Notes under the pieces: model-generated
Databases searched by the model: none
What the model saw: the letters and a program-made list of their open reading frames with translations, nothing else
Told to the model about the DNA's origin: nothing
NCBI GenBank assembly: GCA_963675785.1
Contig: OY776562.1
Location: forward strand, 2,112,001 to 2,176,000
Length of the DNA stretch: 64,000 nt
Source: Anaerolineae bacterium
Lineage (GTDB): Bacteria; Chloroflexota; Anaerolineae; UBA1429
Reading direction: 5' to 3'
Part shown: positions 11,552 through 18,178 of the stretch, in pieces
Layout: each line of letters starts with the position of its first letter
How positions within the stretch are numbered: the first letter of the stretch is position 1
Position numbers and translations under genes: made by a program

Positions 11552-13585
11552 ATGCCCGTCGTTCCTTGGGAATGTGAAACAAATCCAGCCGATATGCACT
11601 GCAATCACATGGATCAATGGCAGATCGACTTGGCTGAACACAAAACCTCAGCCTTGTTAGTTGTGCGCCACAATCGTATCGTACACGAGTGGTACGCTCC
11701 CGAATGCGGCCCCGACGTGCCCCATTACACCGCTTCCCTAGCCAAAGCCCTGGTGGGAGGCACCTCCCTCGGCTTGGCGATAGCAGACGATCTCATCTCA
11801 CCAGACAACCTCGCTTGCCAATACATTCCGGCCTGGCGCGTTGATCCCCTCCGTTCCAAGATCACCATTGCGCAGTTGGCCAGTCATTCTTCTGGCCTGG
11901 AGGATGCCGAAACGCTAGGCAAGGGTCACATGGATCAGGACGGCTGGAAAGAAGCCTTTTGGAGGCGTGATCCCGATCCATTTACCATCGCCCGAGATCA
12001 GGCGCCAGTAAGCTTTGAGCCGGGCTCAGCTTACGCCTACAGCAACACGGGTATGGCCATGCTGGCCTATGCCGTAACAGCCTCCCTCCCCGCGAATCAA
12101 AGCATTCGTGAACTGCTCGAGGAGCGCCTGATGACACCGCTGGGTATCCCTCAGGAGAATTGGCAGATCGGCTACGGTACCACCTACGAAATCGACGGCC
12201 TGCGCCTCAATGCTAACTGGGGCGGTGGCAGCTACACTGCCCGAGCGGTGGCCCGTGTCGGACAATTGATGCTGGATCAGGGGCGTTGGGGAAACCAGCA
12301 GCTCATCTCGGCCGAAACTGTGCGACGTATGCTACGGTCCGTGGGCGCTCCTCGGCCGCCACGGGCAGAGGAACTACACATCCCCACACCGGGATTAGGC
12401 TGGTGGTTGAATATCGACGGCACTTGGCCTAACTTGCCACGCGACGCTTTTGCTGGTGCTGGCGCTGGCCAGCAGATTTTACTGGTGGTGCCCTCACTTG
12501 ATTTGGTAGTCGTGCGTTTGGGTGAGGCCTTTACTGGTGGGTTCCGTCATGATGCCTTTTGGCCCGATGTCAATCGCTATCTGATAGAACCTCTTCTCGA
12601 TTCGCTCAAGCCAGTGATGACACCAGTCGACAAGCTGCCCTACCCCGCTAGCCCAGTCATTCGCGGCATCAATTGGGCTCCCATCAACTCGATGGTGCGC
12701 CAGGCTTACGATAGCGACAACTGGCCCACCACCTGGGGCGACGATGATCGCATCTACACCGCTTATGGCGATGGCTGCGGCTTTGCACCTTATGTCGATC
12801 ACAAGATCGGGCTGGGCTTTGCCGCCATCTCGGGCACACCCGATAATCCCCTCGGTGAGAACATTCGCTCTGCCAGCGGCGAAAACGAGGGCATGGGGGC
12901 CAATGGCATCAAAGCTTCGGGCATAGTGATGATTGATGGCGTGCTCTACATGCTGGGGCGCAACGCTGGTAACGCTATCGTCGCCCGCTCTACCGACCAT
13001 GCGCGCACCTGGGAATGGGCAGACTGGCGTTTCGAGACGAGCTTTGGCTATCCGGGATTCGTCAATTTCGGGCGCAACTATGCCAGCGCCCGCGATGAAT
13101 ACGTCTATATCCATTCATCCGATGGCGATTCAGCTTATCTCCCCACTGACCAGATGGTGCTGGCGCGCGTACCTCGTGAACGCATCATAGAACAAGAAGC
13201 CTATACCTTTTGCGCCGGATTGAAGGATGGTCAACCACGGTGGTCCGCCGATATAGCCGAACGTGCGCCTATTTTTATCAATCCCGGCCGATGTAGCCGC
13301 TCTAGCATGGTTTACAACGTCGGCCTCGGGCGCTATTTATGGTGGCAGGTGCTTACCATCGGCCAAGAACCAGGGCCGCGATTTTGTGGTGGTTTTGCCG
13401 TGTATGACGCTCCCGAACCTTGGGGGCCTTGGACCACCGTCTATAGTGCTGACCAGTGGGATATAGGCCCTGGTGAGATGGGCGGCTTTCCTGCCCGCTG
13501 GATGAGCGAGGATGGCAGAGAATGCGCCTTGGTTTCCTCAGGCAATGATTACTTTAGCGTCAGAAAACTGCGCTTACTCTGTTAA
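11552..13585 (+). CDS. Beta-lactamase-family serine hydrolase fused to a DUF4185-like C-terminal domain
   Basis: N-half has SLAK (SxxK), YSN and GAGAGQQ..VVPSLDLVVVR. C-half has SDNWPTTW, YGDG, STDHARTW and APEPWGPW. The C-domain assignment is from motif recall. Confidence 0.75.
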   Translation: MPVVPWECETNPADMHCNHMDQWQIDLAEHKTSALLVVRHNRIVHEWYAPECGPDVPHYTASLAKALVGGTSLGLAIADDLISPDNLACQYIPAWRVDPLRSKITIAQLASHSSGLEDAETLGKGHMDQDGWKEAFWRRDPDPFTIARDQAPVSFEPGSAYAYSNTGMAMLAYAVTASLPANQSIRELLEERLMTPLGIPQENWQIGYGTTYEIDGLRLNANWGGGSYTARAVARVGQLMLDQGRWGNQQLISAETVRRMLRSVGAPRPPRAEELHIPTPGLGWWLNIDGTWPNLPRDAFAGAGAGQQILLVVPSLDLVVVRLGEAFTGGFRHDAFWPDVNRYLIEPLLDSLKPVMTPVDKLPYPASPVIRGINWAPINSMVRQAYDSDNWPTTWGDDDRIYTAYGDGCGFAPYVDHKIGLGFAAISGTPDNPLGENIRSASGENEGMGANGIKASGIVMIDGVLYMLGRNAGNAIVARSTDHARTWEWADWRFETSFGYPGFVNFGRNYASARDEYVYIHSSDGDSAYLPTDQMVLARVPRERIIEQEAYTFCAGLKDGQPRWSADIAERAPIFINPGRCSRSSMVYNVGLGRYLWWQVLTIGQEPGPRFCGGFAVYDAPEPWGPWTTVYSADQWDIGPGEMGGFPARWMSEDGRECALVSSGNDYFSVRKLRLLC

Positions 13586-13598
13586 GGCAAATGAGTTC

Positions 13599-13626
13599 TT
13601 GATGACATCATTCACGGGTGTATAAT
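13599..13626 (+). promoter_or_regulatory. Sigma70-type promoter
   Basis: TTGATG-16-TATAAT upstream of the lipoprotein gene. Confidence 0.6.
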
Positions 13627-13646
13627 CGTAACCTGATTAGTGAGTT

Positions 13647-14696
13647 ATGGAGCACATGATGCGATTCAAACGTTTATTGCTCATAGTCATTCTAGCAGGA
13701 ACGACGCTCATCAGCGCTGCCTGCGGTCAGGTTTCACAAACAACACAGCAAGGCGATATTACGACGCCTACGGCTCTTGCAACCGAAACGCCCGCTACGG
13801 TCATCGCTGAAGATCAACCCTGGACGCTGACCGTCATCCATAGTAACGACACCATGGGGCAGATGGTCCCCAGTGGTTGAAGCGACCCCTGCGGGGGGCT
13901 GGCTCGGAGAGCCGGCGTAATTGCTGAAACTAAAGCTGCTGCCGAAGGCATTGTTCTCGTACTAGATGCGGGAAGCTCGCTAATGGGTACAGATATCTCT
14001 CTGGAGACCGAAGGACTTGCTGTAGCCGAACCTATGGCTGCCATGGGCTATGATGCCATGGCCATTGGTGTCATGGACGCGGTCAAGGGACTCGATGCAT
14101 TGCGGGCCGTGGAAGAAACGGGCCTTACACTGCTTAGTGCCAACATCGTTGATGCGACGACGGGGGATTTGGTCTTTACGCCCTACGTTTTGCTGGAAGA
14201 ACAGGGAAAAACCATCGCCCTGTTGGGGCTTTCGGATGATGATGTCCTGTTGGCACCCGGCATGGATGGTGTCATTGATATTCTCGATCCCATCGAGCAA
14301 GCCAAGGCTTTAGTGTCTGAACTAGCCGAACAGGCGGATATCATCGTGGTCATCTCGCACCTCGGCGTTGATCTTGACGAACAGTTAGCTGCGGCGGTGC
14401 CCGATATTGACATCGTCATTGGCGGCAACTCGCAAAACATTCCCGACCAACCCGAAATCGTCGGCAGCACTGTGATGGCACGTATAGAAGCCTATGGTTC
14501 CTATGTAGGCCGCTTGACGGTCAAGTTCTCGGCCGATAATGCCATTACGGATGTGGGTGCAGAGGCCATCCATTTAGATAGCACGATTCCAGAAGACTCG
14601 AATGTAGCAGCCATTGTACAAAAGTGGGTCGATCTATACCCGACACCGACGGCTGATCCGGCAATCACCGAGACGCCAGCCGCTATCACATACTAA
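13647..14696 (+). CDS. UshA/5'-nucleotidase-like lipoprotein, probable selenoprotein (in-frame UGA at 13878-13880)
   Basis: ORFs 13647..13880 and 13983..14696 share a frame. Read-through gives HSNDTMGQMVPSG-U-SDPCGGLARRAGVI...LVLDAG. Lipobox ISAAC is present. Start may be 13656 or 13659. Confidence 0.85.
13898..13916 (+). promoter_or_regulatory. Candidate bacterial SECIS hairpin
   Basis: GCTGGCTC-GGA-GAGCCGGC; the G-initiated loop starts after a 25 nt spacer from the UGA. Confidence 0.65.
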
Positions 14697-14725
14697 AAAA
14701 GAGGGGGCTTAAAGCCCCCTCTTTT
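14697..14725. terminator. Bidirectional intrinsic terminator
   Basis: AAAAGAGGGGGCT-TAA-AGCCCCCTCTTTT between convergent genes. Confidence 0.9.
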
Positions 14726-15823
14726 CTACCCTTTGCGCACTGGCAGGGTTGAGCCGCAGCTCTGGCGTTGTATTACGCGCCCCCCCACATGCACCGTATC
14801 CACCTCTTGTTCCAAGAGCAACCCCTTAACTTGCCGGGCCACCGCAGTGGCTAAACCGTCCAAGTCAAAACGTACCGAAGTAATCGGTGTTGGAGCTACG
14901 CTGCACAAGTTATCATCACCCATGCCAACCACAGCCACATCGCGCGGACATGCCCGGCCAATGTTCGTCAATGCCGATATAACCTGCAACGCATAGATAT
15001 CATGCGAGCAAAAGACGGCTGTCGGCCCATCTTCACTGGCAAATAGCGTTTCCAGCCGACTAACAAAGGTCGAACTCCCCGGCTGGCCCGTAATCACCCA
15101 CTCGAGAGAGACGTCAGCACCGTGATCCCAGAGCGTGTTGGCATAGCCCCAATACCGCCTGTCGCCGGATACACTGGTTGGCTCTGCGCCAACATAAGCG
15201 ATCCTCCTGTGCCCCAAAGAAAGCAGGTGCGCAGTAATAGTAGCCGCGCAGATATCCTCATCCAATACGACAGCCGGCACATCAATACCGTCGATATCGC
15301 GCAGAATCAGGATAATCGGCAAAGGGCTTTGTTCCACAAGACCGCCAAATCGATCTGATAGTCCAGAACTCTCGCCCTGAACAAGTATCAAGGCGGCGAC
15401 ATGCTGCTCGGCAGCAGCGACGTACAGAGCGTCCTCCAGCTCGTCCCAGTTACCTTCCAATGTGCGCAACACCACTTGCAGATCCGCATCTCCCAGAGCA
15501 TGCATCATAGCCTGCAAGAGCCCAATGGGAAGTGCATCGAGGCGATCCGGCACCAATAAACTCACTGTCCCTGTTCGTGATCCAGACTGAGGATGTTCAG
15601 AAATGAACCACCCCAACCCATGGCGGCTAACCACAATGCCGTCATGTTTGAGTTCACGCAAGGCACGGCGCACTGTGATCTGGCTCACACCATAGGCATC
15701 ACAGAGTGCGTGTTCGCTCGGAAGTCTATCTCCCGCTTGCAAGCGACCAGATTCCACCTTGTCGGCAATGTCATCCGCAACCCAGCGATAGAGCGGACCA
15801 GAAGGCCGTTCGGTCATGACCAT
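14726..15823 (-). CDS. GntR-HTH plus LacI-type sugar-binding domain regulator (AraR-like)
   Basis: GDRLPSE..YGVSQITVRRAL at the N-terminus; HLLSLGHRRIAY, PTAVFCSHD and DVAVVGMGD at the C-terminus. Confidence 0.9.
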   Translation of the reverse strand: MVMTERPSGPLYRWVADDIADKVESGRLQAGDRLPSEHALCDAYGVSQITVRRALRELKHDGIVVSRHGLGWFISEHPQSGSRTGTVSLLVPDRLDALPIGLLQAMMHALGDADLQVVLRTLEGNWDELEDALYVAAAEQHVAALILVQGESSGLSDRFGGLVEQSPLPIILILRDIDGIDVPAVVLDEDICAATITAHLLSLGHRRIAYVGAEPTSVSGDRRYWGYANTLWDHGADVSLEWVITGQPGSSTFVSRLETLFASEDGPTAVFCSHDIYALQVISALTNIGRACPRDVAVVGMGDDNLCSVAPTPITSVRFDLDGLATAVARQVKGLLLEQEVDTVHVGGRVIQRQSCGSTLPVRKG

Positions 15824-15866: not shown

Positions 15867-18164
15867 TTAATCCACACGCCCCTGACGTGCTGAGAACCAG
15901 CGATAATCAATGTTCAAAAAGACTTTGTCGAGTTCATATAGTTCTTCAACAAAACTCGTATCAATATCAGCATGCTCAACTGCATCAGCAAGCTGATTAA
16001 AGCGCACCACATGTGATTCGAACCGCTCTATAGCGTACTCTTTGGCCTGCCCAGTGGTGATCAAAAAAGGCCAGTCACTAGATTCGAGGAGCAACAATTC
16101 GCGTGCAGCCTGATCAAGCGCCCATCGCTCATCGCCTATCGCGTCAGGATGCTCGGCACAAAGCCGTTCCATCCTGGTTTCAGCCGCATGAATCGGCTCC
16201 CACACCCAATGTGTGTCGTCATTATCCCAGGTCCAATGGGTTCCGCCCGCTCCCCAGGAACTCTCAGGAAGCGCCATGACCTCTTCGGGCGGGTTGATCT
16301 CGAGATATTCGCTGGCCGTCACCAAGTCTACCTCGTCGTCCTCAGCCAGGTTTCGCAGAACCTCGCGAATCCAGGTAACACCCTCGAACCACCAGTGGCC
16401 AAAGAGCTCGGTATCATAGTTTGAAGCCACTAGACCATATTGACCAGTCTTTTCGTGATTTTCGACCAACAGCTCGTGCACAAGCGAAGCATAGTGTTTT
16501 GCGTGGCTTATTACCTTGTTCTCGGCCCAATCGGGGTGATACCAGTCTTTGGAACCCAATTCGGTACGGGGACCGGTAACGCGCCAGTACTGCAAACCCG
16601 ATTCAGGGTCTTTTTGATGGAATTCGCGATAATCCTGATCACCAGGATAGCCCCAATCCGCCGACCAAACTTGCTGACCCGTACGATTGTTGCGCCCAAT
16701 GGCTGCAACTGGCGGATCGACTAGCCCGTTGGTGTTGCCCATCACCCAATAGGCAGAGAAAGTGGTGCCACCACTGGTGTTGCTTTCAGCCATGGGTATA
16801 ACATAATGGCGCTTGATCATGCCATAGGGGCCAATGGCAGTTTCGCCGGCAGCCTTACCCACAGGCATACCACCCTCAATGGCGTGCGTCTCCACAAAGA
16901 AACAGGTAATACCTTGCGCCGAGAGAAACTCTTCGATGCCCGGGCGCACCGTACCGTCGTCATCCACAAAAGCTGGCCTATAGGCACATTCGGGCAGCCA
17001 GATGGCACGAGGTGCCTTGCCGAAATGACGCATATAGCTGGCAATTCCCGTACGAAGCTGGCCATAAATAGACGAATCGCGCCCCAGCAGCGGCAGATAG
17101 CCGTGGGTTGCCGCAGAACAAATGATCTCGATCAGCTCCTCATCCTGCAGTTGGCGGAATGCGCCGATCACATCGCTCTTGAAACGGTCCAAAAAGGCGT
17201 TATGTACCTTGCGGTAATAGTCACGATAAAAGGTGGCCAGATATTCGGCGTGCTCGTCACCCTCTTCGCCAAAGCGGGGGATATCTGCTTCGGCAGAAGC
17301 GATCTCTTGATCCAAATAGGTGACAAAATGGGCTTTGATGTCGGCATCGGCCAGTTGCTCGGTGAGAACCGGCGTAATGCCGATAGTCAAGCGAAAATCA
17401 ATACCCTCATCGCGAAGGTCATAGAGGGCCATAAGCAAGGGAATATACGTCTCGGCCAGGGCTTCGTGCAGCCACTCTTCTCCGTGGGGCCACATGCCCG
17501 CCCGTCGGCAATAAGGCAAATGGCTGTGCAGTACGAACGTAAACGCCCCTGCCGCCTGACCGGGGGTGTTGCGTGGTTTTAGGGCCTTGATCGGAGCCGG
17601 GACAATTGAATTGTTTGCAGACCGAAAAGCCCCCTGAACGAGCTGCTCTTTGAGATTCAGTGTCCACTCGATATCGATGCGAACACGTCCTGCAAGATGG
17701 CGCCAAACGGCATCCAGTGCCAAACCGGGCCCAGGCTGCGCCTGATAGGAGCGCGACATATGCTCAATGCGCACAAGTTCATCTTCTAGGTGCTCTAACC
17801 GGCGATCGAGGAGAGCAGCAAGTTCATCCTCAGGCAGCAAATCGATGAATGAGGCCGCCGCATCCTGAGGTACGCCTCCCAGCGCTGTTTCCTGCCAGGC
17901 ATCTCGCAGCAAATCCTGAAGAACCAGTCCACCCTGGTCAGTAATCTGATAAACATTGCGAGCTGGGCGGCCCTGTGCAGCCTCAACGCCAGACTTGACG
18001 ATCAGGCCTTCATCGGACATACGCGCCAATTGGGCATAGAGCGAGGCCGATGGCACGGTCGCCCAGTCACGGTAAGCATCGCTTTCCAGCGTTTTCTTGA
18101 TCTGGTATCCATACATCTCGCCCCGGGCTAGCAAACCTAGAATCAAAGTACGTACTTGCGACAT
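15867..18164 (-). CDS. PadR-family regulator fused to a GH57 1,4-alpha-glucan branching-type enzyme
   Basis: N-terminus has ILGLL..MYGYQI..SLYAQL..GLI..RNVYQITDQG. From about aa 205 come FVLHSHLPY, ATHGYLPLL, WLPECAY, YDTELFGHWWFEG and SSDWPF. One uninterrupted ORF; AAGGAG RBS before ATG 18164. Confidence 0.9.
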   Translation of the reverse strand: MSQVRTLILGLLARGEMYGYQIKKTLESDAYRDWATVPSASLYAQLARMSDEGLIVKSGVEAAQGRPARNVYQITDQGGLVLQDLLRDAWQETALGGVPQDAAASFIDLLPEDELAALLDRRLEHLEDELVRIEHMSRSYQAQPGPGLALDAVWRHLAGRVRIDIEWTLNLKEQLVQGAFRSANNSIVPAPIKALKPRNTPGQAAGAFTFVLHSHLPYCRRAGMWPHGEEWLHEALAETYIPLLMALYDLRDEGIDFRLTIGITPVLTEQLADADIKAHFVTYLDQEIASAEADIPRFGEEGDEHAEYLATFYRDYYRKVHNAFLDRFKSDVIGAFRQLQDEELIEIICSAATHGYLPLLGRDSSIYGQLRTGIASYMRHFGKAPRAIWLPECAYRPAFVDDDGTVRPGIEEFLSAQGITCFFVETHAIEGGMPVGKAAGETAIGPYGMIKRHYVIPMAESNTSGGTTFSAYWVMGNTNGLVDPPVAAIGRNNRTGQQVWSADWGYPGDQDYREFHQKDPESGLQYWRVTGPRTELGSKDWYHPDWAENKVISHAKHYASLVHELLVENHEKTGQYGLVASNYDTELFGHWWFEGVTWIREVLRNLAEDDEVDLVTASEYLEINPPEEVMALPESSWGAGGTHWTWDNDDTHWVWEPIHAAETRMERLCAEHPDAIGDERWALDQAARELLLLESSDWPFLITTGQAKEYAIERFESHVVRFNQLADAVEHADIDTSFVEELYELDKVFLNIDYRWFSARQGRVD

Positions 18165-18178
18165 GAGCACTCCTTGCT

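Follow-up and report, generated by a model that had tools for sequence, protein, structure and literature searches.

A putative UshA-like selenoprotein of an Anaerolineae bacterium with serine at position -2 and cysteine at position +4 of its in-frame UGA

A 64,000-nucleotide stretch of the genome of an Anaerolineae bacterium (Chloroflexota; GenBank assembly GCA_963675785.1, contig OY776562.1, positions 2,112,001 to 2,176,000 of the forward strand), referred to below as the window, contains two open reading frames (ORFs) that are parted only by an in-frame TGA. The locus raises the question of whether these are two separate or broken genes, or a single UshA-like gene in which UGA is read as selenocysteine (Sec) and, if so, what the product might do. 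We consider it likely that there is one gene for a lipoprotein that receives Sec under the direction of a selenocysteine insertion sequence (SECIS) element, that is not a phosphoesterase, and in which the thiol partner of Sec has moved from position -2 to position +4. The features needed first, in coordinates of the window, are these.

13647-14696, + strand: coding sequence of the UshA-like selenoprotein, one frame of 349 codons with a single UGA read through.
13878-13880, + strand: UGA predicted to encode selenocysteine (U78), from the conserved TGA column, a Cys homolog and the Sec machinery.
13659-13724, + strand: putative signal peptide, a hydrophobic run with a lipobox-like end (..LISAAC) whose Cys26 is encoded at 13722-13724.

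Translation reproduced the arrangement given in a preliminary description of the locus: an upstream ORF of 77 codons plus TGA (13647-13880) and a downstream ORF of 237 amino acids (13983-14696) share one frame of the + strand, and 34 codons, with the product SDPCGGLARR...LVLDAGSSL, lie between the TGA and the ATG at 13983. Read-through of the TGA yields 349 residues with no further stop, and the residues around it are H-S-N-D-T-M-G-Q-M-V-P-S-G-U-S-D-P-C-G-G-L-A-R-R. The true start is likely ATG 13659 (MRFKR...), since the called N-terminal fragments of relatives begin with MRFKR or MRIKR and a GGAG stands 6 nt before this ATG. From there the protein opens with MRFKR, a hydrophobic run and LISAAC, with Ser and not Leu at lipobox position -3. 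Hydrophobic runs followed by a lipobox-like Cys occur in 16 of 23 relatives, as found with a strict regular expression and not a dedicated signal-peptide predictor. The N-terminus is consistent with export and lipidation of the product.

The preliminary description proposed that the genome be checked for Sec machinery, and all of it is present on the single 3.2-Mb contig that makes up the window's genome. tRNA-Sec scores 64.2 bits (gathering score 47) and is called by ARAGORN as tRNA-SeC with anticodon tca; selA (556.5 bits), selB (319.4 bits) and selD (385.7 bits) all exceed their curated cut-offs, and selD carries an in-frame TGA. This selD (G000:C1:352208-353143, - strand; L019) is a selenoprotein itself, with the context ..T-A-A-G-U-A-A-K...

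Is the TGA a fixed feature of the family or a peculiarity of one genome? Of 41 genomes searched (40 relatives besides the window's own), 37 gave a match, and among the best 59 rows (111 bits or more; counted by hand from the table) the match contained a TGA in 55. Twenty-three read-through homologs were aligned (the window gene, a further copy in its own genome and 21 from relatives), and TGA stands at the same alignment column in every one of them. The pattern H-x-N-D-x-x-G-x-x-x-P-x-G-[TGA/TGC/TGT]-x-x-x-x-G-G-x-A-R-R, run against a set with one genome per species, gave at least 123 matches; though TGC and TGT were allowed, the codon is TGA in 123 of the 123 matches listed and a Cys codon in none. 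As the 41-genome and species-genome sets overlap, their counts are not independent of each other. One stop-free homolog (L250) has Cys at the Sec column, in the context E-P-C-A-C, and reads EPCACEPRAGGLARR; it is the sole Cys homolog found. Trp or Arg at this column, which the preliminary description would have taken as a sign of nonsense mutation or sequencing error, was seen in none of these homologs. Six of the 23 homolog genes terminate in TGA, so this codon is also a normal stop in these genomes.

The Gly codon directly before the UGA (13875-13877) is GGT in 23 of the 23 aligned genes. In a set of 125 aligned sequences its third base varies, being T, C and, by eye, at least one A and at least one G. 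This codon use may reflect a context effect on Sec insertion.

The sequence 3' of the UGA contains two hairpins.

13898-13916, + strand: SECIS hairpin with an 8-bp stem and the loop GGA at 13906-13908, overlapping the G-L-A-R-R-A-G codons.
13886-13897, + strand: small CCCC-UGCG-GGGG hairpin between the UGA and the SECIS hairpin.

The SECIS-like hairpin of the preliminary description, with its loop 25 nt past the UGA, was located as GCUGGCUC-GGA-GAGCCGGC and is conserved with compensatory changes; its conserved core pairs 13900-13905 with 13909-13914. Bacterial SECIS elements usually lie about 16-37 nt from the UGA, the range used by bSECISearch. The predicted folding energy of the 48-nt stretch is -24.5 kcal/mol (z = -2.65), matched by 2 of 200 shuffles. 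Across the 125 aligned sequences, in which its codons spell G-L/V-A-R-R-A, 87.7% of hairpin cells are paired, against 30-47% with slid partners, and the covariation score reaches 0.216 (shuffles: 0.105), a value that 0 of 500 shuffles attain. As A-R-R-A encoded by GCN-CGN-CGN-GCN partly pairs with itself, the evidence for the hairpin comes from the free third positions. Pair 33-39, between the third bases of the first Ala codon and the second Arg codon, is CG in 100 sequences, UA in 22 (the window included) and UG in 3, and is unpaired in none; a different stem pair shows six pair types. The loop reads G-G/U-N across relatives. The element is thus a stem-loop that follows the UGA directly, has G in its apical loop and shows compensatory pairs. 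A scan of 13600-14800 against Rfam gave nothing near the gathering score, only terminator-like chance matches, and comparison with the hairpins after the selD UGA was uninformative and was not used.

The second hairpin of the preliminary description exists, but it precedes the main hairpin instead of following it and its structure is unsupported in relatives. Its pairing is 62.2%, against 63.6-65.8% at slides of -2 to +2 and 47.8% and 50.0% at slides of -3 and +3, and its covariation is not above controls. It was rejected as a part of the SECIS element, as its pairing in relatives is no better than with slid partners, and it is probably a by-product of Pro and Gly codons.

The conserved TGA column together with the compensated hairpin indicates a real selenoprotein gene. 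On this comparative sequence evidence, 13647/13659-14696 is a genuine selenoprotein gene, and insertion of Sec in vivo at the UGA of 13878-13880 is predicted.

Standard gene calling splits the gene, as the preliminary description anticipated: public calls list the N- and C-terminal pieces separately. The protein database lists the window's 237-residue C-terminal piece as a called protein and one from another sample that is 81% identical. Two N-terminal pieces of 73 residues are listed there too, 92% and 70% identical, and at the stop both finish with ...M-V-P-S-G. These two N-terminal pieces keep Ser at position -2, so the Ser marks a lineage and not one genome. In describing the selenoprotein as hidden, the preliminary description was right about the split calls; the family itself is already published and has entered NCBIfam.

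The split calls are also what would be expected of a pseudogene, nonsense mutation or sequencing error that leaves 77- and 237-codon ORFs as separate entities. Strain variation bears on this directly. In a run of another study, one contig (X3) spans the entire gene with 3 changed codons, all 3 synonymous and none non-synonymous. Contigs from two metagenome studies, each about 3% diverged, have 23 changed codons, 16 synonymous and 7 non-synonymous (X11), and 19 changed codons, 13 synonymous and 6 non-synonymous (X12). Against X11 the ratio of non-synonymous to synonymous substitution rates (dN/dS) is 0.15 across 263 codons, with 0.08 for the mature part, and the gene is under purifying selection. 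Codons 76-82 keep S-G-U-S-D-P-C across contigs, with one synonymous change at Asp80, and Ser76 and Cys82 are unchanged in every covering contig (X3, X11, two X12 records and an X19 record), which come from four runs of four studies. X19, a contig from an RNA library, spans the TGA; DNA can occur in such libraries, so it was not counted as proof of transcription. Identical codons in all covering contigs and the low dN/dS, along with the TGA column, the conserved SECIS element, the Sec machinery and a single predicted domain that spans the TGA (below), leave a pseudogene or sequencing error exceedingly improbable.

Given one gene, what kind of protein does it encode? The best NCBIfam match is NF041198, "UshA-like (seleno)protein", at 164.4 bits, short of the cut-off of 275 and covering positions 15-272 of 519. 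NF049981, "UshA-like (seleno)protein family 2", is matched from end to end (1-262) at 56.5 bits, likewise below its cut-off of 140. None of the 33 short forms scanned reaches the cut-off of either model; against NF041198 the highest listed score is 208.9 bits, and 5e-66 is the lowest E-value among 23 scanned. Even three CxxU-type paralogs from Chloroflexota (L260, L266, L269) score only 70-77 bits against NF049981. Pfam gave no match to the window protein at E<=0.01, Metallophos included.

An AlphaFold2 (AF2) model is one compact domain across the TGA, with a predicted local distance difference test score (pLDDT) of 91. In Foldseek it aligns with the N-terminal domain of CD73 and of E. coli UshA (template-modelling score 0.85 by query and 0.50 by target), and profile matches to solved 5'-nucleotidases cover their residues ~3-307 with E-values of 1e-33 to 1e-45. 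The window protein thus has the fold of the 5'-nucleotidase N-terminal domain. The C-terminal substrate-binding domain is absent: the protein ends about 270 residues after Sec, and the profile range stops at 272 of 519.

Metallophosphoesterases bind their metals through the motifs D-x-H, G-D, G-N-H-E/D, H and G-H-x-H. At these places the window reads D-T-M-G, A-G-S, G-V-M-D, S-H-L-G and G-N-S-Q, so that the fourth is kept. The profile alignment to 5'-nucleotidases shows the following replacements.

D-x-H: D-x-x-G in the family and the window, with G under the His.
G-D: G-S/N in the family and the window, with S/N under the Asp.
G-N-H-E: G-x-M-D in the family and the window, with x-M-D under N-H-E.
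G-H-x-H: G-N-S-Q in the window, with R/N under the His.

The His and Asp of the H-x-N-D motif are invariant in the family. TGA-free paralogs from the same genomes, the window's own included, keep all ligand motifs and have no C-G-U loop, from which it follows that gain of the Sec loop coincides with loss of the metal site. Fold and homology to UshA and CD73 would suit a conventional metal-dependent 5'-nucleotidase or phosphoesterase that simply happens to contain Sec. This is very unlikely in view of the replaced ligand motifs, the absence of a Metallophos match and of the C-terminal domain, and the canonical paralogs that retain the motifs in the same genomes. The window protein is probably not a phosphoesterase, because the C-terminal domain and most metal-binding residues are absent.

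Of 80 titles among the matches listed, 76 name Chloroflexota lineages, mostly Anaerolineae, with Ktedonobacter and Ca. Amarolinea presumed to belong to that phylum; the remaining 4 are KSB1, Humimicrobiia and two Actinomycetota bins. The short form, with the N-terminal domain only and a probable lipid anchor, occurs mainly in Chloroflexota among the genomes sampled.

The remaining question is that of the residues next to Sec.

13872-13874, + strand: Ser76 (codon AGT) at position -2, in place of the Cys usual in relatives.
13890-13892, + strand: Cys82 (codon TGC) at position +4; the mature window protein has no other Cys.

The preliminary description gave C-x-U before GG.ARR as the usual motif, which is true of the relatives, and reported that in the window this Cys is replaced by Ser and a Cys appears at +4 (PSGUSDPC). 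Both substitutions are confirmed, and the Cys at +4 is unique in the two sequence sets compared. Cys stands at -2 in 22 of the 23 aligned homologs and in 122 of the 123 species-genome matches listed, the window having Ser; at +4 the other members of the 23-sequence set and of the 123 matches listed have Lys, Val, Ile or another residue, and Cys is found in the window only. A pattern with Cys at +4 was found in none of 41 other family genomes (the window's genome alone of 42), in none of 400 other genomes of the class (alone of 401), and in no metagenome contig of a collection that evidently lacks the Joint Genome Institute (JGI) contigs encoding fragments 70-81% identical to the window protein. 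A protein-guided scan of metagenomes returned no relative above 39% identity, and the peptide NDTMGQMV, which is present in the fragment P0008, did not retrieve P0008; the JGI contigs therefore evidently lie outside the collection, and the +4 scan is uninformative on them. A maximum-likelihood tree of 47 rows places the window within a 25-row clade among P-C-G-U sequences (support 90/91, not starred), so the Ser/Cys arrangement is derived. An exchange of tetrapeptides around Sec ([DPCG]U.[VPKG] to [VPSG]U.[DPCG]) was considered and dropped, as x-D-P-V after Sec already occurs in L053/L255, L061 and L119. From the alignments, only the change of Cys to Ser at -2 and the change to Cys at +4 appear special in the window motif.

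In the C-x-x-U variants (L260, L266 and L269, with V-C-G-G-U or V-C-G-S-U) the Cys stands one residue further from Sec. They share a clade with C-x-U members, so the spacing between Cys and Sec varies inside the family.

A selenenylsulfide redox pair usually shows itself as one Sec with one Cys close by in a chain that has no other Cys, and the family is almost free of Cys: 43 family sequences, taken from 22 residues before Sec to the end, have 16 Cys outside -2/-3 in 12,266 residues, the window's +4 included. The main rival to a relocated partner is neutral drift. The protein would be a genuine selenoprotein in which Ser76 and Cys82 arose by drift on a fast-evolving copy, with Cys82 incidental and Sec acting alone or with an external thiol. 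Two sequences, L258 (= L047; P-S-G-U) and L259 (A-I-G-U), have lost the -2 Cys with no Cys within 80 residues of Sec, which favours drift, as do the long terminal branch of the window in the 47-row tree (1.11 against a median of 0.53) and the high variability of positions +1 to +4 across the 123 matches listed. The near absence of Cys from the family makes it unlikely, roughly a few percent, that one of three losers of the -2 Cys would gain a Cys near Sec by chance, and Ser76 and Cys82 are retained in strains about 3% diverged at a dN/dS of 0.15. Drift is a possible explanation that we hold to be less probable than a relocated partner.

L258/L047 and L259 have extra Cys far along the chain, five and two respectively. 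One of these distant Cys, at +88/+92, is at a position where L038 and L042 also carry Cys.

A further reading makes Sec and Cys a metal-binding or Se/S-carrying site that replaced the two-metal centre, and not a catalytic redox pair. The Sec loop lies over the former metal site, the His and Asp of H-x-N-D are invariant as noted, and the sulfur enzyme SoxB is the second-best NCBIfam match after the UshA-like model. At 100 bits the SoxB match is far below its cut-off of 550, and the likeness is one of general fold homology; moreover, a ligand shift from -2 to +4 would presumably be a greater disturbance to the geometry of a chelate than to a selenenylsulfide loop, which is flexible. We regard a metal or carrier site as rather unlikely, slightly more so than drift.

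With a relocated thiol partner as the preferred reading, the following course of events can be proposed. SelB, bound to the hairpin at 13898-13916, would with tRNA-Sec decode the UGA at 13878-13880 as Sec78. The product would be exported and probably lipid-anchored on the outer face of the membrane, where it may be surface-exposed, as the preliminary description suggested. Its working centre is likely Sec78, which lies over the former metal site in the loop that joins strand 1 to helix 1. Sec78 would act with a single thiol partner, Cys82 in the window lineage and the -2 Cys in relatives. The relocated Cys82 would most likely still form a selenenylsulfide with Sec78, in the role of a resolving Cys, in a cycle of redox reactions or chalcogen transfer that takes place outside the cytoplasmic membrane. 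Thiol-selenol redox chemistry or transfer of S or Se is suggested by the signature of Sec plus one Cys, the Cys-poor background and the loss of metal ligands. That a selenol-thiol centre replaced the two-metal phosphoesterase centre, with a thiol partner able to work from either -2 or +4, is advanced tentatively.

Several observations count against the proposal. The selenium content and activity of the window protein are predictions from its sequence, and the relocation of Cys is one evolutionary event (n = 1). L258 and L259 suggest that a nearby Cys may not be essential and that Cys82 may be incidental. In the relatives that are 70-81% identical, position +4 lies between the called pieces, outside the sequence available. 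The pattern used to fetch the 123 listed sequences preset several hairpin positions, and the sequences are related, so independence is overstated in the covariation figures. Within the folded domain of the AF2 model, confidence is lowest at the Sec loop (residues 21-30, mean pLDDT 78), with only the C-terminal Pro/Thr tail scoring lower (60-62), and the lipobox S-A-A-C departs from the textbook L-x-x-C. The literature, in its accessible parts, assigns the family of UshA-like selenoproteins no function.

In 2008 a study of marine metagenomes described UshA-like selenoproteins that carry a CxU motif, under COG0737 (Zhang and Gladyshev 2008, PMC2398784); two reviews list them as well (PMC9312934, PMC13188914). 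In the portion of the 2008 text available, they are placed alongside SelD and FdhA among the families that lack a Cys-based redox motif (PMC2398784), which we read as leaving the function of the family unassigned. A literature search for selenoproteins in Anaerolineae returned no paper on the UshA-like family by title. The window protein belongs to the same fold family as NF041198 (UshA_like_PCGU), with Sec in the same loop before GG.ARR, and its relatives share P-C-G-U; the NF041198 profile has P-C-G-U in 519 positions, whereas the window has P-S-G-U with Cys at +4 and no C-terminal domain. NF049981, of 262 positions, resembles the window protein in size and in having the N-terminal domain only, but its motif, as given in the accessible part of one review, is CxxU (PMC13188914). 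E. coli UshA and CD73 (1ush, 4h1s and others) share the N-terminal fold; unlike the window protein they have the C-terminal domain and the metal motifs, and the window protein carries Sec. In the alignment to the window family, a vertebrate 5'-nucleotidase has two Cys in the same loop (C....C just before GG.ARR); CD73 has a disulfide there (C51-C57). The signature of Sec plus one Cys is shared with CxxU, UxxC and CxU selenoproteins (thioredoxin-like, AhpD-like and others), whereas the fold of the window protein is not thioredoxin-like and its spacing is U-x-x-x-C. The main text of a 2026 review contains no occurrence of 'UxxxC' or 'CxxxU'.

The window's genome has a second UshA-like selenoprotein gene (G000:C1:2723791-2724594, + strand; L043), 38% identical and with one TGA. 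Its motif is T-G-C-G-U, a transmembrane anchor takes the place of the lipobox, its own SECIS element has compensatory stem changes, and it falls in the other main clade. Tandem copies of the selenoprotein gene, 1-3 kb apart, are often found in related genomes (L035, L037, G012:C127, G014:C4, G024:C22).

The sequences flanking the window gene contain two further candidate signals.

13599-13626, + strand: promoter-like site TTGATG-16 nt-TATAAT, with 10 of 12 consensus matches, a resemblance to consensus only and no evidence of function.
14703-14720, either strand: terminator-like G+C-rich hairpin with T runs on both strands, between the selenoprotein gene and a convergent regulator gene; it could terminate both.

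Upstream on the same strand lie genes for a sigma-70 factor, a metallo-beta-lactamase-fold protein, CutC and a beta-lactamase/DUF4185 protein (11552-13585, + strand), the last with a serine beta-lactamase-like domain and a weak DUF4185 match (32.9 bits, cut-off 39.5). The opposite strand carries, downstream, genes for a GntR-type regulator whose sugar-binding domain is periplasmic-binding-protein-like and for an unusual PadR-GH57 fusion (15867-18170, - strand), an ORF of 767 residues with an N-terminal PadR-type regulator domain and a C-terminal GH57 glycoside hydrolase/branching-enzyme domain. The neighbouring genes give no functional hint.

The UshA-like kind of selenoprotein is itself already known. 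What is new is a short, putatively lipid-anchored form that escapes both curated models, its lost phosphoesterase site, and a lineage with Cys on the other side of Sec. As the short-form clade scores below both NCBIfam models, such selenoproteins are probably under-counted in Chloroflexota genomes. A SECIS element built from the conserved A-R-R-A codons is a clear case of a stretch constrained both as protein and as RNA. Loss of the ligands, a nearly Cys-free chain and the relocated partner point to a Sec/Cys centre for redox or chalcogen transfer and not to nucleotide hydrolysis. If this is true, these surface lipoproteins of Chloroflexota would have acquired a new enzyme chemistry on the old 5'-nucleotidase scaffold, and U-x-x-x-C would be a new functional spacing for Sec redox motifs. 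The window lineage would then be a natural experiment, in which the constraint is a small selenenylsulfide ring and not a fixed metal-binding geometry.

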